A DNA stretch of 63,460 nt, the filler included. It is 4 parts of 4 records of this genome, joined end to end, with 100 filler letters (N's around TTAATTAATTAA, not from the genome) between each part and the next. Parts side by side here need not be neighbours in the genome. Positions count along the whole stretch, not along the records: positions 22,741 to 48,621 come from SRR31156797_23114; 3 more parts are not named here. One strand, given 5' to 3'. Positions 22,792-43,705 of this stretch are shown here, one piece after another (the first letter of the stretch is position 1; each line of letters opens with the position of its first letter). The notes under the pieces are model-generated. The model made no database searches, was not told where the DNA came from, and was given only the letters and a program-made list of their open reading frames with translations. Made by a program: the position numbers and the translations under genes.

Positions 22792-24045
22792 TCAACTGCC
22801 GAATTTCGCGGCTTCATCAAACATGGCCAGTACATTCTCAGGCGGCGCGTCAGGCATGATGTTATGAATATTATTAAAGACATATCCGCCGCCGGATGCA
22901 AACAGCTCCAAACGCCGTCTGACATCTGCCCTCACCTCGGCTTCCGTTCCCCGGGGGAGGATGCTGCGGGGATCCATTCCCCCTCCCCAGAAGACGATGT
23001 CCCGGCCGAACTCAGCCTTCACCTTTTCGGGTTCCATATCCAGACAATTGGTCTGAACGGGATTGATGATATCGATTCCCTCTTCGATCAGACTGGGAAT
23101 ATACTGATAGATTGAGCCGCAGGAGTGGAGAAAGGTCTTCATGGAGCTGTTTTTATGCACGTGATCGCAGAGGGTCTTCCTGTGTTCATGAAAGAGAGTC
23201 CGGTAAACGTCCAGGCCCATAAAAGGTCCCGAATCCATGCCCAGGTCATCTCCGAAGCGCAGGATGTCCACCTGGTCTCCGACGGCTTTGCACGTAGCTT
23301 CCAATCCCTTCATATGGCGCTCCATCAGAAGTTCCATAAGGAGGGCCACATTGTCCTGATCCGTATAGAGATCCATAAGGAAGTTGTCCATGCGGCGGAG
23401 GAAGGTCCCCCACTCAAAGAGATTGCAGCCGTTGACGATCATAAGGGCCTTGTCGCTGTTATCTCTCAGCCGGATCGCGTTCTCCCTCAGCTCTTCATAA
23501 AAACCGGGACGGCCCGCATTGTCCCAGGGGCTGTGCACCAGCTTGGCCCAGAGAACATGATCCATGGCCTCGTCCAGGGCCTCCTCCATGGCGCTCCTGC
23601 TGTCGGGATAACCGTCCTTCCAGGGGAAATAGCTCTGATCGAAAAACGTCGCCCCTTCGGGCATCTCGGCGATAAGCCTTCCGCTCTTGTCATGATAGGC
23701 TTCCCAGCAGCCCCTCCCATTCTGTACGGGTTTGAACCACGCGGGGTAAAAAGCCTTGTCCCCATTGGCCATGATCGTTTCCGCCCAGTCTTCCTCGCGG
23801 ACATTGAAACTGCGCCCCACATCCAGAACGTCGATTCCCAGCAGCTCAATAAGCCTGTCACCGGGCTGGGCCAGCTGCTGGACCACATCGTAGATCTTCG
23901 TGGGCTCCTCCCATCCCAGATGTCTCATCAGACGGCTATGCGCGATCGCCGAGATTCCGGAGCTGGGGGTGGCCCCCAGATCGATGGGAACCCTGTCGGG
24001 CGTTTTATGCTCAAGGGTCGCCAGAACCCGTTCTCTTGAATTCAT
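22792..24045 (-). CDS. UROD/MtaA-CmuA (URO-D-like) family protein 1
   Basis: Motifs MNSRERV...PDRVPIDLG, FGDDLG, FLHSCGS, INPVQ, FWGGG, GGYVFNNIHNI...PPENV. Confidence 0.88.
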   Translation of the reverse strand: MNSRERVLATLEHKTPDRVPIDLGATPSSGISAIAHSRLMRHLGWEEPTKIYDVVQQLAQPGDRLIELLGIDVLDVGRSFNVREEDWAETIMANGDKAFYPAWFKPVQNGRGCWEAYHDKSGRLIAEMPEGATFFDQSYFPWKDGYPDSRSAMEEALDEAMDHVLWAKLVHSPWDNAGRPGFYEELRENAIRLRDNSDKALMIVNGCNLFEWGTFLRRMDNFLMDLYTDQDNVALLMELLMERHMKGLEATCKAVGDQVDILRFGDDLGMDSGPFMGLDVYRTLFHEHRKTLCDHVHKNSSMKTFLHSCGSIYQYIPSLIEEGIDIINPVQTNCLDMEPEKVKAEFGRDIVFWGGGMDPRSILPRGTEAEVRADVRRRLELFASGGGYVFNNIHNIMPDAPPENVLAMFDEAAKFGS

Positions 24046-24049
24046 TCCC

Positions 24050-24373
24050 CTACTCCTGATGAAACACTTCCGTCATTTCGGCCCACCATTCGCCCTCTTT
24101 CCTCTCGGGCAGAGGCTGCTGCATGGGTCCCATGATCGCCCACCATTCCTGAGTCTTCTTATGCTCAGCCATTTTCTCCATATCCGCTTCGAAATCACTG
24201 CCTGTGTATTCAAAGTAAGCGAACAGTCTGTCGCCCATCTGGAAGATTGAATAATTCCGGATATTGCACTTGCTGATCATATCAGCCACTTCCGGCCAGA
24301 TATCGCTGTGATACCGTTTGTACTCCTCCAGCTTTTCCGGCTTGATACCTATTATCTGCCCATGCCTTTTCAC
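24050..24373 (-). CDS. L-rhamnose mutarotase family protein 1
   Basis: Motifs EEYKRYH..IWPEV, IRNYSIF, LFAYFEY, QEWW, EVFH. Confidence 0.92.
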   Translation of the reverse strand: MKRHGQIIGIKPEKLEEYKRYHSDIWPEVADMISKCNIRNYSIFQMGDRLFAYFEYTGSDFEADMEKMAEHKKTQEWWAIMGPMQQPLPERKEGEWWAEMTEVFHQE

Positions 24374-24383
24374 AGCATCCTCC

Positions 24384-24602
24384 GATAAACTTTTACTATT
24401 TGATTTACCTTGATATTATCATCGATTTACCACATGTCAAGAAACAATTGCATTAATTTGCTTTATTTAGCGTTTTATAGCTATTTACTCCGGTCAAATT
24501 ATAAATTTCGCGATAAAACGTGGTAAATTATCAAGGTCTAGTTTACCAAAGTGGTAAAATTTTATCAGATCTTATTGACATTTCATTGAATGAATCTACA
24601 AT
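24384..24602. promoter_or_regulatory. divergent sigma-70 promoters with repeated GGTAAA/TTTACC operator half-sites
   Basis: Plus strand TTGACA(24575)-N16-TACAAT; minus strand TTGACA(24440)-N16-TAATAT. Quasi-palindromes GATAAACTTTTACT (24384) and GGTAAAATTTTATC (24553), plus further TTTACC/GGTAAA copies. Confidence 0.55.
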
Positions 24603-24624
24603 AGAAACAGTAAAAGAGGAGCAT

Positions 24625-25632
24625 ATGGCAAAATTAAGTGATGTAGCAGAAAAGGCCGGTGTATCGATAACGACAGCCTCTATGGCTTTATCGGGAAAGG
24701 GAAGAATCTCTATGGAGGTTCGTTCCAGAGTGAATGAAGCCGCCGAATCGATCGGTTATAAGAAGAAAAGCAAAAGCGAGGGTTCCCTCTGGCTTCTTCT
24801 CATCACCATGCATGAGTATGACTACCTCTCCTATTTCTTCAACTCCATCATCAGAGAACTCCAGTCGGCGGCTCTATCACACGGCTACACCCTGACCATC
24901 CTTCCCGTCTGGGAGAACATTGACGAGGATGAGCTCTTCCAAGAGATAAAGAACACCCGCGCCGGTTCTGTATTCACGATCCACTTCGCCAGCAAGAACC
25001 TGCTGACACGATTGGAAGGCATCGGAATCCCCTGCATCGTCATCAACAATTCCACCTACATGGACAGGTTCTTCACCGTATGCGTCGATGATTTCCATGG
25101 CGCCTATGAAGGCACTCTCCAACTGATCAAGGCCGGTCACAGATCCATTGCCTTTATGGATTACCCCAGAGCGACTCTCCCCGGAATCGCAACGGACCGC
25201 TTTTTCGGTTTTCGCAAGGCCATAGAAGAGAAGGGTCTGAGCTTTCCTGATGACTGGCGAAAAACAATTGACTTCAACGATTACGGTCAGATAGAAAAGG
25301 CCCTGGCAGAACTGCTGGAAGGACCGACTGCGAAACCTACGGCCCTCTTCGTACATGATGATATGCTGGCGGCAAAGGTAGTATACGTTCTCAACACTAT
25401 GCGGATGTCGGTTCCCGAGCAGCTTTCTCTGATCGCGCCGGGAGATACCCTCAACTACAAGATCCCCGAGACGGCACAGATTTCCACCATGCGGATCGAT
25501 ACGGGACTGATGGGTCAGTATGCGGTGAACATGCTCCTTGAACGGCTTCAGAAGGGCGAACAGGCGGCTCATGTCCTTAAGATCAAGCAGAGCTATCAGG
25601 ACCGGGGGACCATAATGCGAGGAGAGTCATAG
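24625..25632 (+). CDS. LacI-family transcriptional regulator
   Basis: N-terminal HTH (LSDVAEKAGVSITTASMALS) plus sugar-binding domain. ATG 24625 after GAGGAG. Confidence 0.95.
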   Translation: MAKLSDVAEKAGVSITTASMALSGKGRISMEVRSRVNEAAESIGYKKKSKSEGSLWLLLITMHEYDYLSYFFNSIIRELQSAALSHGYTLTILPVWENIDEDELFQEIKNTRAGSVFTIHFASKNLLTRLEGIGIPCIVINNSTYMDRFFTVCVDDFHGAYEGTLQLIKAGHRSIAFMDYPRATLPGIATDRFFGFRKAIEEKGLSFPDDWRKTIDFNDYGQIEKALAELLEGPTAKPTALFVHDDMLAAKVVYVLNTMRMSVPEQLSLIAPGDTLNYKIPETAQISTMRIDTGLMGQYAVNMLLERLQKGEQAAHVLKIKQSYQDRGTIMRGES

Positions 25633-25684
25633 CCGCATCATCCTGTTAAAATGAATAGGAAGCGATTATGATTAAAACGACATC

Positions 25685-27424
25685 ATGACGGACAAACAGA
25701 AAAATCCCCGTATACAGTCGGTCAGCCTGAAGCGAAGCAGCACAGGGCGCTATCTCGTCCTCTGGGGAGCCACCGCCAAAGAGATTCCCTTTCCCCCCGA
25801 TCCGAATCTAAGTTTGACAGAGGATGACATAGCTTACTGGTACGACCGGGAGTATTCCGGCTGGAATGTGGAAAAGGTCAATATCCCTAAATCCCCCCGA
25901 ACCGGAGCCTCCGGTAAGAGTGTGATCTATCTTCAGCCCGGCGCGGATCATCCCTATATGGAAAGCTATACTCAGACTGTTAAGGACAAATGCGCTCAGG
26001 CAAGTATTGATCTGACCGTCCTCAATGCACAGTGGTGTGATAAATGTTTCGAAGAGAATGTGAACCAGGCCATAGGCCTGCAGCCTGATCTGATCCTTCT
26101 CAATCCTGAAGACCAGGAGAGGAGTGATCACTGGTACCGCCGGATTAACGAAGCCGGAATTCCCGTTGTCGGTGGCAATTTTCTAGCTGACAATGAGGGA
26201 CACCGTTATCTTCTGGCCTGGACGGGCCCCGACGACTGGGGGCAGAGCCGCATGCTGGCCCGCCGACTCGCCGACTGTCTCGGGCATAAGGGAGGCTATG
26301 CGATACTCCAGCACAAGAAGGGCAATTCCAGCTATTACGCCCGAACCTGGGGAGTCATCAGTGAACTGAAAGAATACGCTCCCGGAATGCATCATCTCGC
26401 GTCGGCTCCGGGAATGAACCCAGATGACGCGGTAAAGTCGGTAGAGGAATGGCTGACACGCTTTGGGGATAGACTCAGAGGGATTTTCTGTGCCGATGAC
26501 GGCGAAGTGATGAAAGCCGTAAGCGCCTTTCTGAGTCACAGAAGCCGGGAGGATATCAAATGCGTTGCCGCCGGAAGCAGCCGAACGGGGCTGGAACTGA
26601 TCCTGGCAGGAAAGCTGGAGGCCACCTCCTATCAGTCCCCCGTCATTGACGCGGAGACGGCGGTGCAGAGCATCGTCGACTGGTTCGACGGTCTCCCGGT
26701 AGAACCTATTCGCTATCTCCCCAAACATATCGTCACCAGGAAAGACGCCGCCGATTTTCTCGATGACCGGATTCAGATAAGCAGCCTGAATCTGGACCGT
26801 CTCTACACCCACATCAGGGAGTATAACTGGAAAGGAAGCTATAATTTCTTCGGAGACCTTTACGACAGATTTCTGACAGCTCATGTGATCCCCTCGGAGA
26901 TGTTCCAGGGGATTTGCCTGGAAATACTGACGGGCATCATCATTATCCTGTCTGAAGACGGACTGTCCGTGGAAGATACGATCGGAAGCTACGACAGTCT
27001 GGCGAAGCATATATTCAATACGGGAGACATCCCCTCGGTTCTGGAATGGATGAATGATATGTGCCAGAGGGCCATAGCGGCAAAGGCGGCCAAACTGAAC
27101 CGGAAGACAGCCGTGCAAGAGATCATCGAGTTCATCGAATCCCATTATAGAGAGCCCCTTTCCCTGAAGTCCCTCGCCCATCAATTCTCCATATCCCAGG
27201 CCTATCTGGGACAGATGTTCAGGAAGGAGAAGGGAGAGAAATTCAACGATTACCTCAACAGGAAAAGGATAGAGAATGCGAAGATCATGCTGCTGGGAGA
27301 GAACGTGACCATTAACAGGATAGCCAGGGAACTGGGCTACTCGGATCCTGCCTACTTCTACAAGGTATTCAAAAAAATCGCCGGCCTTTCGGCCAGCGAT
27401 TATATCAAGCAGAATTCTCTGTAA
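25685..27424 (+). CDS. hybrid regulator: sugar-binding-protein-like sensor fused to C-terminal AraC HTH (1)
   Basis: RbsB-like domain (WTGPDDWG, ATSYQS) and AraC tail (LSLKSLA...YLGQMFRKE...GYSDPAYFYKVFKK). No signal peptide or TM segment. Confidence 0.88.
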   Translation: MTDKQKNPRIQSVSLKRSSTGRYLVLWGATAKEIPFPPDPNLSLTEDDIAYWYDREYSGWNVEKVNIPKSPRTGASGKSVIYLQPGADHPYMESYTQTVKDKCAQASIDLTVLNAQWCDKCFEENVNQAIGLQPDLILLNPEDQERSDHWYRRINEAGIPVVGGNFLADNEGHRYLLAWTGPDDWGQSRMLARRLADCLGHKGGYAILQHKKGNSSYYARTWGVISELKEYAPGMHHLASAPGMNPDDAVKSVEEWLTRFGDRLRGIFCADDGEVMKAVSAFLSHRSREDIKCVAAGSSRTGLELILAGKLEATSYQSPVIDAETAVQSIVDWFDGLPVEPIRYLPKHIVTRKDAADFLDDRIQISSLNLDRLYTHIREYNWKGSYNFFGDLYDRFLTAHVIPSEMFQGICLEILTGIIIILSEDGLSVEDTIGSYDSLAKHIFNTGDIPSVLEWMNDMCQRAIAAKAAKLNRKTAVQEIIEFIESHYREPLSLKSLAHQFSISQAYLGQMFRKEKGEKFNDYLNRKRIENAKIMLLGENVTINRIARELGYSDPAYFYKVFKKIAGLSASDYIKQNSL

Positions 27425-27456
27425 CGGACTGAAGAGAAACAATGCCTGCGAGCGGC

Positions 27457-28665
27457 CTATCCTTTCCTCGAAACAGGGGCTCTGTCTAATTCGGGGATAT
27501 CCCATCTTCCCAGATCAAGAGGATAAACGCCGTTCTTCTTCACCAGATTGTAGACGAACTCGTAACGCTCCGCACTGACATTGCTTGGAACCGAATGATC
27601 CGACTGAACGATGAATCCCCCCCCCTTGGCGGCGTTCAGCTTTCTCATAACCTCGTCTTCCAGCTCCTCCGTAGACGCATCGGCCCATTTCATCACATTG
27701 ATATTTCCGCAGAAGGCCATATCGTGACCGAAGGTTTGGCGTTTTTCCACCACATCCATACCCGATTTAGCTTCCAGGGGGTTGTAGCAGTCAAGTCCGA
27801 TTTCGATCAGATCGGGCCAGATATCCGTAGAGTTACCGCATCCGTGGTAGATAACCGGCAATCCTTTGGAATGGCTGAAATCGATCATGGCTTTCAGCCC
27901 CGGCTTGAAGAAGCGTCTCCATGTGTCGGGAGAGAAGAGCATGCCGTTCACATAGGCCACATCCCCCCAAATCACAAATCCATCCAACATACCGCCGGCG
28001 TTCTCATACTGTGCCTTCATCACTTCAAGATTAAAGTTTGCCACCCTGTCCAGAAAGATCTGAAGCTCATCAGGGTAGAGGGCGGACCAGAGAAGAACGT
28101 TCTCACTGCCGATAATACGCCAGCCCTGCTCCATGCCTTCGCAGACCGATCCGTACACCGGAAAGTCTGCGTACAGGGATTTTATACGGTCGATCCAGGG
28201 AGGAGTATTCCGTACGATCACCTCGGAAACACCGTTGAGCTGATCATCTCCTTCCTTGAAGAAACGCCGGTCGTCCCAGGGATCGTCAAACTCGAAAGCC
28301 AGCATTTTCTCTACCGTATCGGTTTCAAACTTCTCAAAATAGGGCATCTGGGCACCCTTCTTATGGCGGACCACCGCTTCGAAGCCGGTCCGGACGATAT
28401 CCTCGTCCTCAGAGGATTTGATTATGTCAAAGGCTTTGATATGAGGGTCTAGATTGGGTGTCGCGCAGATCCAGTCAAGATCGTAGTATCTGTAAGGATC
28501 CGCGTCTTTCGCCAGTCCCAGTTCCTCTCTCCAGCGGTCGATAAAGGTGAGCCAGAAAAAGTCGCTGATCGGTACCCTATCCGCCTCTTCATGACGAAGA
28601 GTTTTATTCATTCTATCAAGCTTTCTCAAGCAATTTTCCGTTCTTTCCACAGCATCTCCTTTCAC
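27457..28665 (-). CDS. UROD/MtaA-CmuA family protein 2
   Basis: Motifs EADRVPI, IWGDVAY, IYHGCGN, NPLEAK, FCGNI, GGFIVQSDHSVP. Confidence 0.88.
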   Translation of the reverse strand: MKGDAVERTENCLRKLDRMNKTLRHEEADRVPISDFFWLTFIDRWREELGLAKDADPYRYYDLDWICATPNLDPHIKAFDIIKSSEDEDIVRTGFEAVVRHKKGAQMPYFEKFETDTVEKMLAFEFDDPWDDRRFFKEGDDQLNGVSEVIVRNTPPWIDRIKSLYADFPVYGSVCEGMEQGWRIIGSENVLLWSALYPDELQIFLDRVANFNLEVMKAQYENAGGMLDGFVIWGDVAYVNGMLFSPDTWRRFFKPGLKAMIDFSHSKGLPVIYHGCGNSTDIWPDLIEIGLDCYNPLEAKSGMDVVEKRQTFGHDMAFCGNINVMKWADASTEELEDEVMRKLNAAKGGGFIVQSDHSVPSNVSAERYEFVYNLVKKNGVYPLDLGRWDIPELDRAPVSRKG

Positions 28666-28823
28666 ATTATATCCTTACACATAAATCATTTACATAAAAA
28701 AAGAGTAACCCAATAGCAGGAGATCGACAACAGGAAAAAAAAGCGATTTGCATGTAAAAAATCAGACTGATTCGGAACGCTCTCTTTTAAAGAAAAACGT
28801 CCCGAAACCTGTACAGAGGAGCC

Positions 28824-30131
28824 CTATCTGGAGGGACTTTTTTCCACTTCTTCCATAGCGATTTTCTCCCACTCCCACAAGCGCTGGGGCTTGTAGTTGA
28901 CGGTAGAGATATCCTTCATGATCAACTCGATATGGCAGCTCCCATTGGCCTCGTCCAGAAACTCCCTGATCTGGCGCCGAGCCTCGTCGGGATCCCAGAC
29001 AGTAGTGGCGAAAACGGCAGGATTCGGTTTCCGGCTGATCACGTACTCATCCCTTATCTCAGCGATGGCTTTTTGCGTATCGTTCCAGGGACTGCAGGAG
29101 ATCTTTCGCAGATTGGGAATACGTCGCAGCTGCTCCATCTTGCCGGCCAAAGGCTCGCAGCAGCCGTAGTAGGTCAGCCCCCAGCGGGAGAGCCACTTCA
29201 TATCATGTTCAATGGCAAAATCCCAGTGCATTTCCGGAGACACATCGCTGAATATCTGAGCGTTTGAGCACCCCCACATATTGTGAGGCCTTATATGATC
29301 GGGATCCAGATCTATACCGGGCAGCGCACTGCAGTAGCCGTATCCGCCCGAGCCGATTCTCGTATTGTTACAGTCCAACTCCAGAAGGTTCATCTCATCA
29401 AACTGATCCAGCTCGGTCATCCAGGCCTGAACCATCCGCTCCACCGCATCGTGAACCATTTCCGGCCGCAGAACCAGATCCATCATGGCTTCTGAAACAC
29501 CCCACCAACGGATCAGATAGTCCCATGGGGTAAACCAGATATGGCTCTGTCCCACAAGGCGCACGGGAAGTATATCGCCCAAAAGCCCCTGCATGGTTTC
29601 ATAGCTGATCCGGGTGGCTTCCTCATTATGACTGATCACAGGCATCCTGATCTTTTGAATATCTTCGGGTTCGGCGATCTGGATCTTGAAATGACGGGAA
29701 ACGATGTCGTTATCCTCATCGGTTTTGGCTATATCCGTATCTTCCAGGATGCCGAAATCGGTGCTGTGAATCACTTTCTCACATTCGAACCAGGGATTGA
29801 CGATCATATCGCCGGGCAGATGCCGCCACTGGTAGATGATCTTACGCAGCTTATCTTCCAGAGCCCTGGCCCACTTCCCCTGACAACCCAGAGTCAGCTC
29901 TTCATCCACATTCATCTCATGCCAGGGAATCTCGTTGATCCATACCATGGGACGCTGGGACTTCAGATCGTTGAGATCGGTCCACAGGGCCGCCTTTTTC
30001 GTGTGAATCGGCTCCATGGCAATGGCGGCGTACTCCTCTCCAAGCGCTCTTAAAATATCTCTTTCATCAGGACGCAACTCTATCGCTTCAGCGACGGGAA
30101 CCGCTGATACATGACTGGGATCGTGTAACAT
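28824..30131 (-). CDS. divergent UROD-like TIM-barrel protein 3
   Basis: Motifs VSPEMHWDF, YYGCCEP, IPNLRKISCSPW, KPNP, IMKDIST. UROD-like pattern without the HxC motif. Confidence 0.65.
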   Translation of the reverse strand: MLHDPSHVSAVPVAEAIELRPDERDILRALGEEYAAIAMEPIHTKKAALWTDLNDLKSQRPMVWINEIPWHEMNVDEELTLGCQGKWARALEDKLRKIIYQWRHLPGDMIVNPWFECEKVIHSTDFGILEDTDIAKTDEDNDIVSRHFKIQIAEPEDIQKIRMPVISHNEEATRISYETMQGLLGDILPVRLVGQSHIWFTPWDYLIRWWGVSEAMMDLVLRPEMVHDAVERMVQAWMTELDQFDEMNLLELDCNNTRIGSGGYGYCSALPGIDLDPDHIRPHNMWGCSNAQIFSDVSPEMHWDFAIEHDMKWLSRWGLTYYGCCEPLAGKMEQLRRIPNLRKISCSPWNDTQKAIAEIRDEYVISRKPNPAVFATTVWDPDEARRQIREFLDEANGSCHIELIMKDISTVNYKPQRLWEWEKIAMEEVEKSPSR

Positions 30132-30178
30132 TATTCTTCTCCGTTTGCTCAACCGGCTGGCGCCGGTCTCAGATAATT

Positions 30179-30502
30179 TCAGTCGAGATGGTAAACCTCA
30201 TCCATATCGGCCCACCATTCGCCTTCGGCTCGGGTTTCAAGGGGCTGCTGCATGGGCTTCATCAAAGCCCACCACTCCTGTGTCATTGGATCGGCTGCCA
30301 TCTTGGCCATATCAGCTTCAAAGTCATTGCCCGAATACTCCATATAGGCGAAGAGAAAGCCGTCTTTATGATAGATGCTGTAGTTGGAGATATTGCACTC
30401 CCTGATCATCGCGTTTATCTCGGGCCAGGGATTGGCATGATGATACTTATACTTCTCCAGCTCTTCTTCTTTAACTCTGATAACCTGTCCGAACCGTTTC
30501 AT
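30179..30502 (-). CDS. L-rhamnose mutarotase family protein 2
   Basis: Motifs EKYKYHH..PWPEI, ISNYSIY, LFAYMEY, QEWW, EVYH. Clear paralog of 24050-24373. ATG 30502 after AAGGAGG. Confidence 0.92.
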   Translation of the reverse strand: MKRFGQVIRVKEEELEKYKYHHANPWPEINAMIRECNISNYSIYHKDGFLFAYMEYSGNDFEADMAKMAADPMTQEWWALMKPMQQPLETRAEGEWWADMDEVYHLD

Positions 30503-31613
30503 GGCCGCCCTCCTTATCATGTTTATGCTTCATTCTCAATTCGTCCGCCTCAGCCAGAAGGGCAGGACGCTCTCCTTTGCGCAGGCTCTGTCTGTACAGA
30601 ACATAAGCCTCGTAAAGGACCACGGCTCCCAGAAGAACTCCGGCCGCCAGAACCTGGGCGTCAAACCCCATTCCCATACCGATGAGTCCGTTGAAAATGG
30701 CCTGAATGGTGATGACGGCGAAGGCGGTTTTTACGACAGAGCCGCTTCCTCCTGTCATAACCGTCCCGCCGATAATAGTGGAAGCCAGAACCATCATCAG
30801 TGGACTGATGCCCCGCTCTCCGTAATTGGGTACGGCCGCATTCATGGAGCTGGCGAATAGGATCCCTCCCAGAGCGGCTGTGAATCCGGAGATTACGAAG
30901 GTCCAGATCAGTTTCCGCTCCATATCGATACCCGCCTGCCAGGCCGCCTCCCTGTTGCTTCCCACCATAAAGAGTCCCCGTCCCCAGGAAGTCTTGACAA
31001 GAAGCAGCTCAAAAAAGACCAGTACCAGAATGGTAATAACAGATCGGAAAGTAAAAAACTCCAGATATGGGAGCTTCAGAAATGGTTTCTCGATGACGTC
31101 CACCAGAAGATAACTGTTAGCGGAAATAGTATTGCCCTTGCAGTAGGTGTATACGAAACCACCCAGAGTGGTGAGCATGCCGATGGTTACGATAAAGGAG
31201 TGTACCTTCGCCTTGGCAACCAGGAGGCCGTTGATCAGTCCGAACAGGGAACCCGCCGCCAGTGCTATGGCAAAGGCTGCGATCCAGGCCCCGACGACGG
31301 CAGCCGTTCCTGCAGGCTCGCCGCCAAACAGGGCGTAAAAGCGGTTGAACTCCCCCATCACAACGACGGCACCCACATTGATAATGGCTCCGACAGACAG
31401 ATCGAAATTTCCACCGATCATGACATAGGTGAATCCAATGCCTACCATCATAAACAGCAGAGCCGTTTTCAATAAAGGAGTCACATTGGAAGAGCGGAGG
31501 AATCCCGGCGCTCCGATGGACATGATAATGACCACGATAAACAGGAATACGTATATTCTGTTATGATTCAAAGCCGCCAATAGCGAATGATTGTCTTTCT
31601 TCAGTTTAAACAT
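30471..31613 (-). CDS. sugar ABC transporter permease (RbsC type)
   Basis: Multi-TM protein with GNFDLSVG, SFIVTIG, GSNREAAWQAGI, IIGGT..GGSG. Confidence 0.93.
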   Translation of the reverse strand: MFKLKKDNHSLLAALNHNRIYVFLFIVVIIMSIGAPGFLRSSNVTPLLKTALLFMMVGIGFTYVMIGGNFDLSVGAIINVGAVVVMGEFNRFYALFGGEPAGTAAVVGAWIAAFAIALAAGSLFGLINGLLVAKAKVHSFIVTIGMLTTLGGFVYTYCKGNTISANSYLLVDVIEKPFLKLPYLEFFTFRSVITILVLVFFELLLVKTSWGRGLFMVGSNREAAWQAGIDMERKLIWTFVISGFTAALGGILFASSMNAAVPNYGERGISPLMMVLASTIIGGTVMTGGSGSVVKTAFAVITIQAIFNGLIGMGMGFDAQVLAAGVLLGAVVLYEAYVLYRQSLRKGERPALLAEADELRMKHKHDKEGGHETVRTGYQS

Positions 31614-32679
31614 AGTCCCGTCCCAGTTTCTTCAGTGATCTCGCATTGACTGCCACCACGGTAATGAAGATGGCGCCTGTAATCATTTTCTGCGTAAAGG
31701 TTCCGACTCCCATAAGGGTCAGGATATTGCTGATCAGTCCCAGAGTGAATACTCCGCCAAAGACGCCGATCATGCTTCCCCGTCCTCCGGCCAGGCTCAT
31801 TCCGCCCAGAATAATGGCCGTTACCGCCTGGAAGTCATAACCCTGTCCGATGTAAAAGGCGCCGACCTGGTTCAGGGAGGTCATAAAGATTCCTGCGATG
31901 GATGCGAAGACGGACGACATCATGAAAGCGAACATGGCGGTTCTTGTCGCGTTGATTCCCGACATCTTTCCAACCTCGAAACTGGAACCCACTACCTTGA
32001 GCTGGTTACCGAAAGTCGTCTTGCTCATAATGATGTAACCGATGATCATAACGGCAAACATTACGTAAAGGACCAGGGGAATCCCCAGAGGATATGTCGT
32101 GGCCAGTGCGTTAAAAACCTGAGCCCGGCTCACCAGATCGATATCCATGATGTGGGGATCCAGCTTGTACATCAGAGGCAGGAAGAATCCTGTGGCATAG
32201 GTCTTTTCAGTAGCCATGTCCGGATAGATCTGGGTCCCCTTATAGGACCACCTGACCAGCCCCTCCAGGATGAAGTTCATGGCCAGGGTCCAGATAATGG
32301 CGTTCACCCGCAGCTTTCCGATTACGAATCCGTTCATAAGGCCGATGATCATACCGGTGATCACCGCCGCAATGATTCCGTACCAGAGTCCGTAGCGCAT
32401 AAACTCGACGCAGATGACACCGGTGGTCGCCATGGCCATGGGGGCGGACAGGTCTCCGAACTGACCGCAGTAGATGACAAACGAGATACCTGCCGCTACG
32501 ATACCCAGATAGGAAACGGCGTTGAGTATGTTCAGTATGTTTGTGGGGCTGAGGAAGTGGGGAGATACGATCATCCCTATCAACGCCAGCACCAGAATCA
32601 TGAAAAACACTCCGAAGCGGTTTGCAATCAGAGAGAGCTGATCGTGCCCTCTTTTACTGATATTCTTAATATTCGACAC
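31606..32679 (-). CDS. sugar ABC transporter permease (RbsC type)
   Basis: Multi-TM protein with DLSA, AVTAIILGGMSLAGGRG. Probable GTG start at 32679. Confidence 0.93.
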   Translation of the reverse strand: MSNIKNISKRGHDQLSLIANRFGVFFMILVLALIGMIVSPHFLSPTNILNILNAVSYLGIVAAGISFVIYCGQFGDLSAPMAMATTGVICVEFMRYGLWYGIIAAVITGMIIGLMNGFVIGKLRVNAIIWTLAMNFILEGLVRWSYKGTQIYPDMATEKTYATGFFLPLMYKLDPHIMDIDLVSRAQVFNALATTYPLGIPLVLYVMFAVMIIGYIIMSKTTFGNQLKVVGSSFEVGKMSGINATRTAMFAFMMSSVFASIAGIFMTSLNQVGAFYIGQGYDFQAVTAIILGGMSLAGGRGSMIGVFGGVFTLGLISNILTLMGVGTFTQKMITGAIFITVVAVNARSLKKLGRDYV

Positions 32680-34192
32680 TGAAGACTCCTCTCTCTCCGT
32701 TTGCAGCCAAAAGGACTTTATTCTCATCGAAGCCGTCTTCCTTCCTCAGTTCCCCGATCAGATGTCCCTGACGCATAACAGCGACTCTGTCGGACAGGGC
32801 TACCAGTTCGGGCAGATCGGAAGACAGTACGATCACCGACATTCCCTCTGCCGCCAGTTTTACGATGGTTTCATGGATCAGCTTCTTGGCGCCCACATCC
32901 ACCCCCCGAGTGGGTTCATCAAGAATAAGCACCTTGGGCTTGGTACTCAGCCACTTGGCCAGCAGAACCTTCTGTTGGTTTCCTCCCGAAAGATTGGAAG
33001 TATTGATGGCGGGATCAACGGGGACGATGGTCAGTTTTTCATAGAGATCCTCAAGAACGGGATCACCCTTCTTGGGCTGGAAGAAGAATAATTTCGAAAG
33101 CCTGGGAATGATGGAGGACAAAATATTGTCTCTGTTGGTAAGTCTGAGGGCGAGGCCTTCCGTTTTTCTGTTTTCAGACAGATAGGCAATTCCCTTATTC
33201 AGCATCTGGGCCATGTCTTTTACAACGACCTCTTCTCCATCCAGAATGAGTTTGCCGTGGTCCACCTTGTCAGCTCCGCAGAGACAGCGGCCCAGTTCGG
33301 TGCGGCCGGATCCAGCCAGACCGACGACTCCCAGAATCTCCCCCTGGTAGAGCTCGAAGTTAATGTCATGTACGAAACCGTAGTGGGTTAAATCTTCAGT
33401 TTTAAGTACGACATCGTTACAGTCGCTCCCGAGGCAGTCCCGGGCAAAGTCATCGATCTTCTCGCCGATCATCATCTCGACCAGAGATTCCTTGTTTACA
33501 TCTTGAATATCACAGGTATCGATCTTTTTACCGTCCCGCATGACCGTAACCCGGTCGGCCACTTCGAAAATTTCGGGAAGATGGTGTGAGATATAAACAA
33601 TGGCCACGCCCTCTTTCTTGATCTCCCTGATAATATGAAAAAGCATATCGACTTCTTTGCTGGAGAGGGCGGAGCTAGGCTCATCCATGACCAGAATCCT
33701 GGGATTGCTATTCAGAACCTTGGCCATCTCTATCAGCTGAGACTCATGCTGCGAAATCTCTCTCATCATCATTCCGGGATCAATGACCTTATCCAGTTTT
33801 ACCTTTGCCAGAGATTCGACAGTCTGCTTCCTGAGGGCTTCCTGATCGACAAACAGGCCCTTCACGGGAATGTTGCCGGCAAACATATTCTCTTCCACAC
33901 TTCGGTTATAGGCGATACTCAGCTCCTGATACACCATTCCCACACCCTCTTCCTTCGCCTGGAGAGGGGAACTGAGATGAACCTTCTTACCGCCGATCTG
34001 GATTTCTCCCGTATAGTCGGGATAGGAGCCGGCCAGAATCTTCATCAACGTCGATTTCCCCGCACCGTTCTCACCCATCAGAGCATGAACCTCTCCTTCC
34101 CGGACTTCAAGGCTGACCTTGTCTACAGCCAGGGTACCGGGGAATCTCTTACTGACCTGGCTCATCCGTAATGCTATGGCCGCTTCACCCAC
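32666..34192 (-). CDS. sugar ABC transporter ATP-binding protein (RbsA type, two NBDs)
   Basis: Motifs GENGAGKST, VMDEP, LSGGNQQK, LILDEPTRGVDVGAK. Probable GTG start at 34192. Confidence 0.96.
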   Translation of the reverse strand: MGEAAIALRMSQVSKRFPGTLAVDKVSLEVREGEVHALMGENGAGKSTLMKILAGSYPDYTGEIQIGGKKVHLSSPLQAKEEGVGMVYQELSIAYNRSVEENMFAGNIPVKGLFVDQEALRKQTVESLAKVKLDKVIDPGMMMREISQHESQLIEMAKVLNSNPRILVMDEPSSALSSKEVDMLFHIIREIKKEGVAIVYISHHLPEIFEVADRVTVMRDGKKIDTCDIQDVNKESLVEMMIGEKIDDFARDCLGSDCNDVVLKTEDLTHYGFVHDINFELYQGEILGVVGLAGSGRTELGRCLCGADKVDHGKLILDGEEVVVKDMAQMLNKGIAYLSENRKTEGLALRLTNRDNILSSIIPRLSKLFFFQPKKGDPVLEDLYEKLTIVPVDPAINTSNLSGGNQQKVLLAKWLSTKPKVLILDEPTRGVDVGAKKLIHETIVKLAAEGMSVIVLSSDLPELVALSDRVAVMRQGHLIGELRKEDGFDENKVLLAANGERGVFSVEY

Positions 34193-34291
34193 TGTATTTC
34201 TCCTGTTTTCAAAACCTCCCCGAGGGGAGGCATATTTCATGCTTTCTTACATAGGAGGCGCTCATTCAGAAAGGAGCGCTCCCAAAGGCTT

Positions 34292-35470
34292 TTACCACTG
34301 GGCGGGCATAAAATCGTCTACATTGCCGGGAGTGATAACGGCCTGGGGCAGGTAGTAAGCCGCATTGGGTCCCAGGTCAACACCGTTGAAGTAGTCGGCG
34401 GCGACCTTTACGGGAACGGCTCCGTCAGCCTCAGCGGACTGGAAAGTTATCGCATCGATCTTACCGGCCTTGACCAGGTCCATTCCGACCTTGGAGTTTC
34501 CGGCTGCGATAACGTAAACATCATCTCTTCCGGCTTCTTCGAGAGCCTGGGTGACACCGAGCCCCTGTGCGGAGTCATCCGATACAACGATACAGGTCAG
34601 ATCATCACCGAACCGGGTCAGCCAATCGGCTACGACCTGCTTGGTCTTGGGAGCGTCAAACCCGGGAGACTGGATGTCCAGGGTCTTCATATCGGGATAG
34701 TGCTCTTCATAGTATTTCACAACGTTGGTGGTTCTGGCGAAGTAGGGCGAGCCTCCGGGGATATGAGTGATATATCCGACGCCGGCTTTACCGCCCACAT
34801 CCTGAGCCATATGCTCGGCAAGCATCTTGAACTGACCGAAGTCGTCGGGTGCGGTGATGGCCAGAACATATCTCATGGCGTCATCGTTAGGGATCATATT
34901 GTAAGCGATGGCGGGGATTCCGGCATCATAGAGCTTCTTGAACTGCTGAACTCCGGCCTTGGCATCCAGGGTTGCCAAAAGTACCATATCGGCCTTTTCG
35001 GCAATGGCTCTGTCTACATACTGGTTCTGCTGGTTTAGGTCTCCATTGGGATTCCACATCTCGAATTCGGCCTGATAGGCTTCACAGGCTATCCGGGAGC
35101 CGTTGGCAACGGCTGTCCAGTAAGGATGCTCGGACTGCATGATCATGATGATTTTCTTACCGATAACACCATCTCCGGGCGAGGGGATCATATCGACCTT
35201 CCTGGTCTGACGTCCGGCATATTCAAGCTTCCACATATCCAGTTCCTCGGCATCCGCAGGCTTGGCGGGAACGGGTCTGGTTTCACCGTAGATAAGAAGC
35301 AACTGACCGTCGCTTCCTCGAACATTGGAGATATCGATAGCCCTGGAGGCCTGCAGATTCGCCTTGGAGGCAGCGGCATCTTCGGGAGATGCGGTTTCCT
35401 GTTGTCCGGCAGCGAATGCCGTTCCCAGTACCAGAACGGACATCAGTAAGATGGTGGCTAATTTCTTCAT
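34292..35470 (-). CDS. sugar ABC transporter substrate-binding protein
   Basis: Signal peptide ending in the spirochaete-style ...AFAAGQQE, followed by an RbsB-like domain. Confidence 0.93.
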   Translation of the reverse strand: MKKLATILLMSVLVLGTAFAAGQQETASPEDAAASKANLQASRAIDISNVRGSDGQLLLIYGETRPVPAKPADAEELDMWKLEYAGRQTRKVDMIPSPGDGVIGKKIIMIMQSEHPYWTAVANGSRIACEAYQAEFEMWNPNGDLNQQNQYVDRAIAEKADMVLLATLDAKAGVQQFKKLYDAGIPAIAYNMIPNDDAMRYVLAITAPDDFGQFKMLAEHMAQDVGGKAGVGYITHIPGGSPYFARTTNVVKYYEEHYPDMKTLDIQSPGFDAPKTKQVVADWLTRFGDDLTCIVVSDDSAQGLGVTQALEEAGRDDVYVIAAGNSKVGMDLVKAGKIDAITFQSAEADGAVPVKVAADYFNGVDLGPNAAYYLPQAVITPGNVDDFMPAQW

Positions 35471-35636
35471 AGTTCAGACTCCTTTTTGTATCCTTTCAAG
35501 GCCTTACGCCTCGAATTGAAATTGTAAAAAAGAACGAAAAATTGTTATTTTCCGCCCCTCGACGTAATCAGATTAAATCTGTATTAGAACACCTGCAACA
35601 GGACAAATTACGCATAGAACTGGAATAATTTCGAAA

Positions 35637-36698
35637 TTATTTGATCCGTTCATAATCTCCCCACTCATCCACAGCGGCAAACATGGCCAGTACATTCTCC
35701 ACGGGGGTCTCCTCCAAAATGGTATCATGACTGGCTCCGGCAATATAGGATCCTCCCTGAGCCATGATATTCAGAAGCCCCGAAGTACGGGCTTTCACCT
35801 CTTTTGGTGTGGTTCCGCGGATTAATATATGGTGGGAATCTATGGCTCCGTTCAGCACGATATAATCACCGAAATCACGGGCAATGGAGGCCGGTTCCAT
35901 ACCATGACAGTCCGGTTGTAAGGCATGCAGACCGTCCAGCCCTATCTCAATCAGAACGGGAATCAATGGTCTATAGCCACCGCAGCAGTGAAGCATGACC
36001 TTGAGACCGTAACGCTGTCCCAGGTCCGTCAGACGCCTGAAAGAGGGAAGAAGAAACTCCCGGAACTGCTCCACTCCCAGAAGAGGACCGGACTGGCTCC
36101 CCAGATCGTTCCCGATAAAGAAGATATCCATAAGGTCCCCTGCCTCTTCAAAAGCTCTTCTGCTGGCCTCAATATAGAAATCAGTAATCCTTTCAAACAG
36201 TGCGGAAGCCACATCGGGAAAATCATACATCAGATAATAAAGCTCCTCGTGTCCGATAAGATCGATCGCATCGTGCCAGAAGGGAGACCATTCACCTCCC
36301 ATAATGGCAAACTCTCCTCCGTAGACAGAAATACGACGGCGCAGATCAGAAATATCTGCGTATTCCGGATCCGGCCAGGGGTAGGCATCAAGTTCATCCA
36401 GCGAACTGATTCCCTGAAGGGGGTGCTGCAGAGGCATCCCAAATCCTATGCCCGAACGCTCCACACCGAAAGGACTACGCCAGCTTACCCCTTTGCCCAA
36501 AGGCTTCTCCATGTTCTTGTATGTAGCGCGAACCACCCTGAAATCATCTTTTACATAACGCCTGACCCCTTCCTCATCCAGACCGAGATAGCTCTGCATC
36601 TTAGCACTGAAGCCATCAGACATCCCCAGCCATCGGGGCATTCTGTCAGGTTTCATCTGTTTATCGAAAACGGCTGCTACACGCTCTTTTGAAGTCAT
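35637..36698 (-). CDS. UROD/MtaA-CmuA family protein 4
   Basis: Motifs MTSKERV...PDRMP, YPWPDP, IGNDLGSQ, MLHCCGG, NGAID, GASHD...TPVENV. ATG 36698 after AGGAGG. Confidence 0.88.
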   Translation of the reverse strand: MTSKERVAAVFDKQMKPDRMPRWLGMSDGFSAKMQSYLGLDEEGVRRYVKDDFRVVRATYKNMEKPLGKGVSWRSPFGVERSGIGFGMPLQHPLQGISSLDELDAYPWPDPEYADISDLRRRISVYGGEFAIMGGEWSPFWHDAIDLIGHEELYYLMYDFPDVASALFERITDFYIEASRRAFEEAGDLMDIFFIGNDLGSQSGPLLGVEQFREFLLPSFRRLTDLGQRYGLKVMLHCCGGYRPLIPVLIEIGLDGLHALQPDCHGMEPASIARDFGDYIVLNGAIDSHHILIRGTTPKEVKARTSGLLNIMAQGGSYIAGASHDTILEETPVENVLAMFAAVDEWGDYERIK

Positions 36699-36927
36699 AT
36701 TCGGCCTCCTGTCTGTTAGAGAACTGCTCACTCATGGACAGGATAGCACTGCTTCAGAAGGATATAAATTGTAAGAATTATTGATTTATGTGAAATAAAT
36801 ATGGAAAAACAGAATCATTCGCCAGAGTGTCCTCCGGCTCTGAGCTGCTGAAAGACACAGTCCGAGGCTGATCGCAACCTCCACTCAGCTGCGCAGACGG
36901 ACAGTCACGGCCCTCATTAATCATGAG

Positions 36928-38820
36928 TCAAACGCCGCAACCTGGACAGTATCCATTTCTGTAATCAGAAGGATTCATACCAGTCTGCCGTTTGAATATT
37001 CTGAAAAAATAACTGGAATCCGAATACCCCACCTCACGGGCGATCTCATACTCCTTCAGATTGGGATCCGCCAGAAGAACCTTGGCCTTCTCCACCCTGA
37101 TCTCATTGAGATGGCTGGAAAAGTTGCTGCCCGTCTCCTTCTTGTAGAGCTGCCCCAAGTAAGCGGCAGTCAGGTTAAACTGATAGGATAGGGTCTTAAG
37201 AGAGAGTGGCTTCTCAGAGTTCATTCTGACATAGTCGACTATTCTATCGATGGGCACCTTGGCCGACTGCGCGTTCTTGACCACGGCACAGTATTTTATA
37301 GAGATCTCTTCCAGCCACTGAATGGTCCGGTCGAAACTCTTCTGATGAAGGATGCGCTTTGCAAGCATGGCAGGATTATGACAGCCGGTCAGTGAACGGT
37401 TGTTGAAACCCGTTTCCGCGGTAATATGGATAAAATGGGAAAGAATCTCTATGGCTACACCGCTGCAGAACTCGGCTGACACAAGACTGCATGCCCCCAT
37501 CCTTGCAGTCAGGTCTTCAAAATAACAGCTAACGCCCGCAGCATCACCCAGCTTAAGGGCCTCGGTGTAGGGCATATAGTCGATGACAGGCAGTTCATTT
37601 TTCTTAATAAGAAAGATATCCACATCTTCGGCAGTGATGACATGGACAGGCATGAAAGAGACGGGGGGAATTTCAAATCCATTAAACCAGTCTATGGCGG
37701 TCTGCATGGCGAGGGCTCCGTCGATGATGCCAGACTGGTAGGTAGTCGCTTTGAGTTTTCCCTGTTTGATATCCCGAAGAGCGTCCTCCGGACTCCAGTG
37801 GGCCACGCAGATAACATCATTCCTCTTCGCCCGGTCCAGGGCCCTGAAGATTCCCTTCTGAACGATGAGGCTATCCGCCGAAACGATTCCCTTCAGCCTG
37901 TTTCCGTACTGGCTGACCCATTTATCTACGGCCCTCTCGGAGAGGGTGAGATTCATCTCGGTGGAACAGAAATCAAGACACTCCATAGTAGGAGCGATTT
38001 CGTTGAGTTCAGAAATGACCCCCCAGGTCCTGGCCAGATTACAGGAAGTCCCTTCCAGATGTTGAATCAGGGTATAGCCCCCCTTATAGTCCATATATTC
38101 GGCAAAGCGTCTTGCCAGCTCTCTGGACATCTCCCAGTCGTTGGGGCCTGTCCAGGAAAGAAGATAAGGCAGGTCCTCCTGCGCCGGCATCAGATTGCAT
38201 CCGATGATAGGAATCCCCGCTTCGTAGATCTTCTTGTATAAGCCCTTTATATGAGCGAACTCCGGCATCACATGGATCACAAGATCCGGTTTTTTTTTGA
38301 TTACCTGTTCAGCAAAATCATACTGAGCCTGATAACTCATATCCGTATCGATCAGTTCCAGCTCGACCTGATGGATATCCGCCAGCTGCCGCATTCCACT
38401 GCCGAGATTATCCATATAGGGATGATTCATGGGATTATTGTACACCACATGCTTCCCTTCCGGACCATCCATACTGCTTTCGGGCATAGGCTTCTTCTCA
38501 ACCTGCCAGTGCATATGCTCCAGGTCATACCAATGCCTGGCATCATCCATCGGATAGGAGGACTGCTTTTCAGGTCTGAGAGATCTTGTTGATTCCCTGT
38601 TTTCTCCGATTAGAATTAACGGACTTTTGTGTTTCAGACGGCTGTGCTCCTTTGACTCCCAGTATACCACAGACCTCCTCTGTTTCACATAAAGTCCCGG
38701 ATGACATCTGATACGGCCAGTTGATTCACGGGAAGAATACCATGCGAAGTATTGTGTATCTTTTAAGGCGTATCCCCCGCCGGGAATCAGTATCTCCCGC
38801 CTCCCGAAAACCTCAGCCAT
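36928..38820 (-). CDS. hybrid regulator: sugar-binding-protein-like sensor fused to AraC HTH (2)
   Basis: Paralog of 25685-27424 (WTGPNDW, ATTYQS, LSLKTLS...GYSDSSYFFRIFKR). The true start is probably downstream of 38820. Confidence 0.88.
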   Translation of the reverse strand: MAEVFGRREILIPGGGYALKDTQYFAWYSSRESTGRIRCHPGLYVKQRRSVVYWESKEHSRLKHKSPLILIGENRESTRSLRPEKQSSYPMDDARHWYDLEHMHWQVEKKPMPESSMDGPEGKHVVYNNPMNHPYMDNLGSGMRQLADIHQVELELIDTDMSYQAQYDFAEQVIKKKPDLVIHVMPEFAHIKGLYKKIYEAGIPIIGCNLMPAQEDLPYLLSWTGPNDWEMSRELARRFAEYMDYKGGYTLIQHLEGTSCNLARTWGVISELNEIAPTMECLDFCSTEMNLTLSERAVDKWVSQYGNRLKGIVSADSLIVQKGIFRALDRAKRNDVICVAHWSPEDALRDIKQGKLKATTYQSGIIDGALAMQTAIDWFNGFEIPPVSFMPVHVITAEDVDIFLIKKNELPVIDYMPYTEALKLGDAAGVSCYFEDLTARMGACSLVSAEFCSGVAIEILSHFIHITAETGFNNRSLTGCHNPAMLAKRILHQKSFDRTIQWLEEISIKYCAVVKNAQSAKVPIDRIVDYVRMNSEKPLSLKTLSYQFNLTAAYLGQLYKKETGSNFSSHLNEIRVEKAKVLLADPNLKEYEIAREVGYSDSSYFFRIFKRQTGMNPSDYRNGYCPGCGV

Positions 38821-43704: not shown

Positions 43705-43705
43705 T

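Follow-up and report, generated by a model that had tools for sequence, protein, structure and literature searches.

Candidate corrinoid-dependent demethylation of O-methylated fucose-type sugars by four URO-D-fold proteins of a bacterial sugar locus

The stretch of DNA analysed here, the window, is 63,460 nucleotides long and joins four parts of four records of one genome; between its positions 22792 and 38820 lie thirteen genes that combine a monosaccharide importer of the ATP-binding cassette (ABC) class, two mutarotases and three regulators with four proteins of the uroporphyrinogen decarboxylase (URO-D) fold. These four, named P1, P2, X442 and P4, are considered here as candidate enzymes for the removal of methyl groups from sugars. 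Every gene that a first-pass annotation had listed in this interval is present at the position it gave. Running down the minus strand from 38820 to 27457 are, in this order, a hybrid regulator, P4, the sugar-binding protein, the ATPase and the two permeases of the importer, a RhaM-family mutarotase, X442 and P2; to the left of P2, a LacI-family regulator and a hybrid regulator of 579 amino acids occupy the plus strand, and a second mutarotase and P1 follow on the minus strand. By position, and with E-values (E) of the profile matches and helix-turn-helix (HTH) domains where they apply, the genes are:

22792-24045, minus strand: P1, URO-D-fold protein of 417 amino acids (PF01208, E 8.2e-19; motifs HSC ... 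NIHN)
24050-24373, minus strand: mutarotase 1, RhaM family, L-fucose-mutarotase type (PF05336, E 2.4e-35)
24520-25632, plus strand: LacI-family regulator (LacI HTH and Peripla_BP_3)
25685-27424, plus strand: hybrid regulator of 579 amino acids, sugar-binding-protein-like domain and AraC HTH (Peripla_BP_4, E 9.3e-31; HTH_18, E 3.5e-18)
27457-28665, minus strand: P2, URO-D-fold protein of 402 amino acids (PF01208, E 1.7e-21; motifs HGC ... SDHS)
28824-30152, minus strand: X442, predicted URO-D-fold protein (structure model), open reading frame (ORF) of 442 amino acids, from a family without a Pfam model
30179-30520, minus strand: mutarotase 2, RhaM family, L-fucose-mutarotase type (PF05336, E 4.8e-33)
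30471-31613, minus strand: CUT2 ABC permease (BPD_transp_2, E 2.1e-29; best NCBIfam matches AraH/MglC, below their cut-offs)
31606-32727, minus strand: CUT2 ABC permease (BPD_transp_2, E 8.9e-31)
32666-34240, minus strand: CUT2 ABC ATPase with two ATP-binding domains (ABC_tran in two stretches, E 3.7e-52; AraG/XylG/RbsA-like)
34292-35470, minus strand: sugar-binding protein of the importer (Peripla_BP_4, E 2.4e-35)
35637-36731, minus strand: P4, URO-D-fold protein, ORF of 364 amino acids (PF01208, E 7.6e-23; motifs HCC ... ASHD)
36928-38820, minus strand: second hybrid regulator, 630 amino acids, binding-protein-like domain and AraC HTH (Peripla_BP_4, E 6e-20; HTH_18, E 1.1e-18)

Two of these frames are probably called too long: homologues of X442 have 431-435 amino acids, so its likely true start is the methionine at residue 8 (about position 30131), and those of P4 have 347-353, so that its likely start is the methionine at residue 12 (about 36698). 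The 579-residue hybrid regulator keeps its position in four related loci (L001-L004). The importer has the make-up of a CUT2 system, namely a Peripla_BP_4 binding protein, a two-domain ATPase and BPD_transp_2 permeases. Its proteins score below the cut-off for every named equivalog (AraFGH, RbsABC, XylFGH, MglABC), so that no specificity is assignable from them, and the best solved relatives of the binding protein are CUT2 sugar-binding proteins at E 2.7e-18 or weaker, from which the specificity is likewise not readable. Pfam finds no kinase, isomerase or aldolase between 22792 and 38820; for these genes, as for tetrapyrrole genes, corrinoid proteins and their activators, our reading of this interval agrees with the first-pass annotation, which had seen none.

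Three of the four URO-D-like genes named in that annotation are recognized by PF01208, and the fourth, X442, is recognized by its fold. X442 itself has no sequence match in Pfam (at E 0.01 or better), NCBIfam or, by phmmer, the PDB. Its AF2 model, built with 32 homologues, has a pLDDT of 81.2 and a pTM of 0.84; a Foldseek search with the model returns UroD as best match (E 6e-8), and VIA-align superposes it on UroD with Z 19.4 and a root-mean-square deviation of 3.9-4.2 over 297-300 residues, on the coenzyme M methyltransferase MtaA with Z 15.6-15.8, and on MetE and unrelated GH5 barrels with Z of at most 12.8 and 10.9, respectively. The nearest protein-atlas clusters are labelled 'putative URO-D domain', and eight of 38 representatives of the wider family have weak matches to PF01208, one of them above the cut-off, and to no other family. 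It is the structure model and the weak matches of these intermediate sequences alone that place X442, as a URO-D-fold protein outside the Pfam family PF01208.

The family to which X442 belongs is large, highly conserved and spread over many phyla, and it has no Pfam model. Of 8000 candidates scored in a sequence search, at least 4675 clusters at 90% identity matched; the listed matches, 120 in number, are 64-90% identical to X442, and every source name among them is 'hypothetical protein'. A profile search of 1.84 billion representatives returned 2699 clusters (50% identity) at E<=1e-3 and 681 at <=1e-30. Across this wider family Y329 is invariant, and G330, C331, C332, E409, K375 and R349 are nearly so; the motif YYGCCE is, together with E409, nearly invariant.

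P1, P2 and P4 are members of PF01208 by score, with whole-protein values of 68.2, 77.1 and 81.5 bits against a gathering cut-off of 23.9, in matches that span only the C-terminal 55-60% of the profile. The motif pairs reported for them in the first-pass annotation are found in the translations and are invariant within each subfamily: H307, C309 and H394 in the alignment of P1 with its orthologues (seven sequences), H274, G275, C276 and S355, D356, H357, S358 in that of P2 (n=15), and H248, C250, S334, H335 and D336 in that of P4 (n=30). The only match of the P4 family profile in the PDB is MtaA (methylcobalamin:coenzyme M methyltransferase, 4ay7; E 6.5e-9), likewise a URO-D barrel, with the His-x-Cys motifs aligned. 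In MtaA the His-x-Cys motif and a C-terminal cysteine form the zinc site, that cysteine being the third ligand. P4 differs from MtaA in the column of this cysteine, where it has Asp336 next to His335; SDHS takes the corresponding place in P2, and NIHN in P1. The P4 model (pLDDT 91.9) superposes with Z 27.2 on UroD and with Z 26.6 on MtaA (20% identity), and a sequence search with P4 found 2647 relatives which, where named, are called 'uroporphyrinogen decarboxylase family protein'.

The surroundings of X442 in other genomes provide a view of its partners. One genome per species was scanned, giving 346 stretches with an X442 relative, of which the best 80 loci were kept; six of these (L034, L050, L053, L054, L062, L076) were dropped since no X442 ORF was called in them, and the remaining 74 together with the window make 75 loci. 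Among the phyla represented are Spirochaetota, Bacteroidota, Planctomycetota, Verrucomicrobiota/Kiritimatiellia, Hydrogenedentota, Acidobacteriota and Bacillota; the loci L001, L008 and L011 belong to Oceanispirochaeta, Vallitalea maricola and Victivallis. Gene calls were crude (the longest non-overlapping ORFs of >=90 amino acids, sometimes antisense), the products were grouped by BLASTP, and each neighbour family took its name from the Pfam match of a single representative. A URO-D protein is the most frequent neighbour within five genes of X442 (28 of the 75 loci), followed by a RhaM mutarotase (21), a CUT2 ATPase (20), a GH29 alpha-L-fucosidase (20), an SSF symporter (18) and a sulfatase (8); a GFO/Idh/MocA oxidoreductase occurs in 6/75, a FucP-like MFS transporter in 5/75, RhaT and LacI in 4/75 each, a SASA esterase and GH95 in 3/75 each, and the fucose isomerase FucI in 2/75. 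The URO-D neighbours fall into the subfamilies of this locus, with P2-like proteins (>=46% identity) at 14 loci, P4-like ones (>=50%) at 11 and P1-like ones at 6, the window excluded, which argues that the four barrels are a recurring set and not a chance assembly.

Both the neighbourhood and the co-occurrence of corrinoid parts, which the first-pass annotation had proposed as a check, came out in favour of a link. RACo, the corrinoid reductive activator (PF14574), is encoded in 75 of 80 X442-bearing genomes (47/50 and 28/30), as against 1/14 well-known control genomes, 42/151 in a whole Spirochaetota sample and 11/151 in a whole Bacteroidales sample. Within the Spirochaetota it is present in 15/15 genomes with X442 and 27/136 without (p 5e-10, or 2e-9 when the seed genome is left out); within the Bacteroidales the counts are 3/3 and 8/148 (p 3e-4, or 0.004 without the seed). 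The association persists among spirochaetes that have FucI, 12/12 with X442 against 9/19 without (p 0.002). These p values are from one-sided Fisher tests, in which shared ancestry is disregarded and incomplete metagenome-assembled genomes (MAGs) are numerous.

The closest genome, an Oceanispirochaeta MAG (G001) whose X442 is 89-90% identical, illustrates how these parts may be distributed. It has 12 B12-binding matches, four of them ORFs of 223-247 amino acids, the size of corrinoid proteins, two copies of RACo and 19 URO-D paralogues, and its corrinoid proteins and RACo lie far from the X442 locus. One of its corrinoid proteins (210 amino acids, with the motif DLHDIG) lies between two ORFs, after one for an AraC-type regulator (PocR and AraC domains are present in its L112 and L113 orthologues) and before one of 399 residues, whose L112 orthologue is an aldose 1-epimerase. 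Outside the locus, seven of the ten URO-D paralogue regions examined (L093-L102) adjoin AraC regulators and/or CUT2 transporters. The methyl-corrinoid:tetrahydrofolate methyltransferase (MeTr, Pterin_bind) is matched by Pfam in L036, L105 and L106 and, in G001, by a BLAST label alone (35% identity, L104).

Physical joins between X442, other sugar-locus URO-D proteins and corrinoid genes occur in several genomes. In L045 the order is AraC, MtaB, CobW, corrinoid protein, RACo, DUF1638, AraC, X442 and SSF, followed beyond SSF by URO-D(P1), URO-D(P4), a sulfatase and GH29; L036 has GH29, X442, FucP, a transporter, PfkB, a corrinoid protein (split) and a pterin-binding methyltransferase up to the contig end. 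The RACo sites of 18 carriers were inspected, and nine have a corrinoid protein adjacent. In three Bacteroidales (L105, L106, L115) such a site comprises MTHFR, pterin-binding MeTr, FTHFS, a formate channel, AraC, a corrinoid protein and RACo; this core module contains no substrate-side methyltransferase (MT1), its MTHFR carries DUF5981, and it has the look of a route by which non-acetogens oxidise methyl groups to formate. In the Bacteroidales carrier G021, one co-directional minus-strand string holds a formate channel, FTHFS, MeTr, MTHFR, GHL6, a URO-D protein (341 amino acids, HSC ... SPSHE), RhaT, GH95, GH29, Amidohydro_2 and a sulfatase, and it adjoins AraC, a corrinoid protein and RACo. 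Each of the five Bacteroidales carriers searched has 11-25 URO-D matches, and those of G021 adjoin GH29, GH43, GH2, GH38, GH57, GH106 and RhaA with kinase and aldolase, as well as RhaT, SSF, RhaM and sulfatases. A Blautia MAG (L118) shows the order URO-D, RhaM, GDSL, URO-D, AraC, URO-D, PocR/AraC, corrinoid protein and RACo; the URO-D protein beside its corrinoid protein has the MtaA-type C-terminal cysteine (HNC ... GCD), whereas both of those beside RhaM have HSC and one also has a C-terminal histidine (SHE). This difference fits a division between an MT2, the methyltransferase on the acceptor side, and a sugar-specific MT1. An attempt to single out X442 as the sole MT1 of the Bacteroidales by elimination failed, as URO-D paralogues number 11-25 in their genomes, which often have MttB as well; a search of five Bacteroidales genomes did not find MtaB.

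Several corrinoid neighbourhoods are recorded here in their own right. At positions 3449-8971 of L045, a bacterial MtaB (methanol:corrinoid methyltransferase, E 1e-163) is followed by CobW, corrinoid protein, RACo and DUF1638 immediately upstream of the X442/fucosidase locus. The Oceanispirochaeta genomes (L082 of G001, L112 and L121) conserve a group of RACo, a PocR/AraC regulator, a corrinoid protein and an aldose 1-epimerase, which puts a sugar mutarotase and a corrinoid protein into one apparent operon. In spirochaetes, a full-length URO-D protein of 448 amino acids (L113, positions 11618-12964, E 1.6e-59; also L122) lies between a corrinoid protein and CobW; it is devoid of any His-x-Cys motif and may be an MT1 or an MT2.

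As to the sugar, the context points to L-fucose more than to rhamnose. The first-pass annotation had called the two mutarotases rhamnose mutarotases, which holds for the family (PF05336, Pfam rhaM) and not for the closest relative: among solved structures, mutarotase 1 is nearest to the 'L-fucose mutarotase' 7byu (E 2.8e-33, while no rhamnose mutarotase does better than 1.4e-7), as is mutarotase 2 (E 6.9e-29, the best rhamnose mutarotase being at 1.1e-7), and their scores of 56.5 and 45.1 bits fall below the 99.6-bit cut-off of the RhaM/YiiL equivalog TIGR02625. In the Spirochaetota sample (n=151), FucI is present in 12/15 genomes with X442 and 19/136 of the others (p 2e-7). In G001, FucI is encoded about 25 kb away from the locus and RhaA at another place, and GH29 was not found, a gene set that fits a scavenger of free monosaccharides taken up by an ABC importer. 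That the sugar would be a methylated one is likewise suggested by context.

Taken together, we favour, with modest confidence, the reading that the locus imports and demethylates O-methylated sugars of the fucose (6-deoxyhexose) type, its URO-D-fold proteins being substrate-specific methyl-sugar:corrinoid methyltransferases. The CUT2 system would bring in the free methylated monosaccharide, on which X442, P1, P2 and P4 would act as substrate- or position-specific MT1s; a metal held by His-x-Cys and His/Asp (Cys-Cys and Glu in X442) may polarise the ether oxygen, and a small corrinoid protein in its Co(I) form would accept the methyl group. The corrinoid protein, RACo and the methyl-corrinoid:tetrahydrofolate methyltransferase would be shared parts encoded elsewhere in the genome, passing the methyl group into the one-carbon (C1) metabolism of folate. 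The fucose-type mutarotases would then equilibrate the freed L-fucose for fucose isomerase and the ordinary pathway, and the LacI-family and two hybrid regulators would turn the locus on when the sugar is present. This reading rests on gene content, folds, conserved residues and cross-genome links to fucose genes and to RACo/corrinoid modules, from which we infer that the substrate is methylated, in which direction the methyl group moves, what the metal does and why there would be four paralogues. The demethylation of O-methylated deoxysugars that the first-pass annotation had suggested gains partial support from the co-occurrence of RACo, the physical links and the corrinoid gene set of G001, in a sugar context that points to L-fucose. 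The simplest account is a distributed corrinoid system, in which many MT1s of sugar loci draw on one or a few corrinoid/RACo/MT2 modules. A wider claim, to which we give just short of even credence, is that anaerobic removal of methyl ethers from sugars is widespread, with X442 and the allied URO-D subfamilies acting as methyl-fucose (methyl-deoxyhexose):corrinoid methyltransferases that feed a shared corrinoid protein/RACo/MeTr module. In Bacteroidales this module would run on through MTHFR and FTHFS to exported formate.

The arrangement has counterparts among known systems. The closest are the corrinoid-dependent O-demethylase and methyltransferase systems of anaerobes, with three or four components (MT1, a small corrinoid protein with B12-binding_2 and B12-binding domains, MT2 and RACo), whose layout the proposed system would follow. 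Corrinoid O-, S- and halogen-demethylases are counted in PMC10418091 among the members of the UroD superfamily, to which the MT1 candidates here belong. Also alike are the large number of MT1 paralogues in a genome that has one or a few corrinoid/activator modules and the presence, in linked modules, of a pterin-binding MT2 with folate C1 enzymes. Those systems use aryl methyl ethers, methanol, methylamines or methyl halides, whereas the putative substrate here is an aliphatic sugar methyl ether; the MT1 candidates here lie in sugar-uptake or glycan loci far from the corrinoid protein, and one of them, X442, comes from a family without a Pfam model. The known systems belong to acetogens and methanogens, while the present genes are also found in Bacteroidota, Planctomycetota, Verrucomicrobiota, Acidobacteriota and Spirochaetota. 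MtaA, the closest solved relative, is an MT2, whereas the direction proposed here is that of an MT1, with the corrinoid protein not adjacent in the locus. The P450 sugar demethylases of aerobic marine bacteria, which act on 6-O-methyl-D-galactose, address the same problem of methyl ethers that block sugar catabolism (PMC6292453); they are oxygen-dependent and unrelated proteins, and no P450 is present here.

Several observations weigh against demethylation at this locus. Pfam finds no corrinoid protein, activator or pterin methyltransferase among the 49 ORFs scanned in the 63-kb window, whose sole B12-related gene is a cut methylmalonyl-CoA mutase (1-786). The first-pass annotation had noted that the contig is cut on the left, which does not explain the missing corrinoid genes, since 22 kb separate the locus from the left end of the window; we infer instead that they are encoded elsewhere in the genome, as they are in the congener G001, from which all corrinoid parts of the window organism are extrapolated. 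Corrinoid parts stand within 10 kb of X442 in only two of 75 loci (L045 and L036), and four RACo sites in Planctomycetota have no corrinoid protein nearby. The co-occurrence counts are corrected neither for ancestry nor for an anaerobic, glycan-degrading lifestyle, and FucI alone is also enriched for RACo (21/31). X442 has no BLASTP similarity to P1, its profile-profile comparison with the P4 family (hhalign) reaches a probability of only 4.2%, collinear and with YYGCCE over MLHCCG, and the histidine of His-x-Cys is replaced in it. The scores of P1, P2 and P4 for the MtaA/CmuA subfamily model TIGR01463 (29.4, 49.4 and 64.7 bits; X442 has no match) are far from its cut-off of 235.4 bits, and the third zinc ligand of P4 is, judging by its alignment, unlike that of MtaA. 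The conservation of as many as four paralogues is unexplained by demethylation. Finally, an aliphatic sugar methyl ether is a harder target for Co(I) than the aryl methyl ethers of the known O-demethylases; the nearest analogy is the zinc-assisted activation of methanol by MtaB. To our knowledge, the methyl-ether chemistry of Co(I) extends so far to methanol and aryl ethers, and cleavage of an aliphatic methyl ether would be chemically new in this enzyme class.

Some of the same observations would suit a set of corrinoid-independent, metal-dependent enzymes that act on L-fucose or a relative, as isomerase, epimerase, hydratase or ether/ester hydrolase, and replace or precede the classical isomerase step, the link to RACo being a by-product of lifestyle. 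Corrinoid genes are missing from the window and from 73 of the 75 loci, mutarotases usually supply an enzyme acting at the sugar's C1, the locus is free of kinase, isomerase and aldolase, the metal ligands differ from those of MtaA, and Foldseek gives weak matches (E 3.7e-3) to the barrels of rhamnose isomerase and tagatose epimerase. We nevertheless consider such enzymes unlikely, as a lifestyle effect fits poorly with RACo in 75 of 80 carriers, with 15/15 and 3/3 in the matched samples and with its persistence within FucI-positive genomes, and the direct joins to corrinoid protein, RACo, MeTr and MTHFR across L045, L036, L118 and G021 also speak against it; moreover, G001 retains its own FucI and RhaA, and the superfamily members listed in a passage of PMC10418091 are a decarboxylase or alkyl transferases, with no sugar isomerase or hydrolase among them. 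If corrinoids are involved, the barrels might instead work as MT2-like methyltransferases that move the methyl group from methyl-corrinoid to a thiol, folate or a sugar hydroxyl. Their closest solved relative, MtaA, is such an enzyme, His-x-Cys metal sites are typical of the thiol-activating members, and L045 has a methanol-type MT1 (MtaB) near X442. This direction appears improbable to us, given that the Bacteroidales modules already hold a pterin-binding MT2 and no other MT1, that in L118 the URO-D protein with the MtaA-type C-terminal cysteine is a separate gene beside the corrinoid protein, that the setting of importer, fucosidases and sulfatases is catabolic, and that the scores are far under the MtaA/MtbA cut-offs.

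A further question is whether the chemistry is right and the sugar wrong. The substrate could be an O-methyl-galactose, -rhamnose or -xylose, or a methylthio or sulfated deoxysugar, with the fucose genes co-located since they serve the same polymers; the aldose 1-epimerase that adjoins corrinoid protein and RACo in Oceanispirochaeta, the G021 paralogues near GH106 rhamnosidase, RhaA, GH38, GH2 and GH43, and a binding protein that is uninformative on specificity would all be compatible with this. Set against the fucose type of both mutarotases, the rank of GH29 as the commonest hydrolase beside X442 and the co-occurrence of X442 with FucI, another sugar strikes us as a little less probable again than an MT2-like role. 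That the barrels are uroporphyrinogen decarboxylases or other tetrapyrrole enzymes, which the Pfam family name and the fold shared by X442 and P4 with UroD (HemE) might suggest and which the first-pass annotation had named as an outcome that would overturn its proposal, has next to no chance of being correct. For the HemE equivalog TIGR01464, with a cut-off of 302.95 bits, P1 scores 23.8 and P2, X442 and P4 have no match, on which ground a HemE function was rejected; no tetrapyrrole genes are nearby or among the 49 ORFs scanned in the window, the setting is one of sugar and fucosidase genes, G001 alone has 19 URO-D paralogues, and the conserved His-x-Cys also sets these proteins apart from HemE.

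Plant, algal and microbial polysaccharides contain fucose, rhamnose, galactose and xylose with methyl ethers, which block ordinary sugar catabolism. In a full-text search that excluded subscription journals and supplementary files, no corrinoid sugar-demethylating system was described, and no oxygen-independent sugar demethylase was found. The only sugar demethylase that the search returned is the oxygen-dependent P450 of PMC6292453, whose abstract calls methyl removal critical for further processing of the sugar and describes a cytochrome P450 as oxidising the carbohydrate; PMC9324843 and PMC10418091 deal with corrinoid systems other than sugar demethylation. If our favoured reading is true, it would put gene names to anaerobic sugar demethylation in sediments, guts and peat. 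It would also give a function to thousands of 'hypothetical' proteins of the X442 family and to many 'uroporphyrinogen decarboxylase family' paralogues in glycan loci, and connect the breakdown of glycans with the demand for B12 and with C1/formate flux. On the wider claim, the route would be an oxygen-free counterpart of the P450 enzymes and would account for the expansion of URO-D paralogues (11-25 per genome) in glycan-degrading anaerobes.

The remainder of the window harbors several features outside the sugar locus. The cluster that adjoins it at 39040-46894 begins with an RpiR regulator and continues with a GlcD-like FAD oxidase, an MFS transporter, EtfB/EtfA, a KduD-like SDR (325.9 bits against a cut-off of 369) and an FGGY kinase; it was considered as a part of the locus and set aside, as these genes do not recur beside X442. 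Just to the left of the locus, at 18323-21770 on the plus strand, a CbbQ/NorQ-type AAA ATPase precedes an 800-residue protein with a weak VWA domain. On the minus strand, positions 1-16663 carry acyl-CoA genes, comprising the cut methylmalonyl-CoA mutase, two acyl-CoA dehydrogenases, a CCG/4Fe-4S protein, EtfAB, an AMP-binding ligase, a thiolase and an OYE-type flavin reductase, and at 9625-12650 a radical SAM/SPASM protein (497 amino acids) adjoins a 457-residue protein with no Pfam or NCBIfam match. On the plus strand, a BCCT betaine/carnitine/choline transporter is divided between two overlapping ORFs (46968-47555 and 47386-48669, profile positions 1-165 and 163-484), the sign of a frameshift, a pseudogene or a sequencing error. 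Further along that strand, at 55006-58520, an aldehyde:ferredoxin oxidoreductase ORF with only the C-terminal domains overlaps an iron alcohol dehydrogenase of 586 amino acids that has a long N-terminal extension, and at 59364-60827 a CotH kinase-family protein (E 1.4e-58) is encoded in what appears to be a spirochaete genome.

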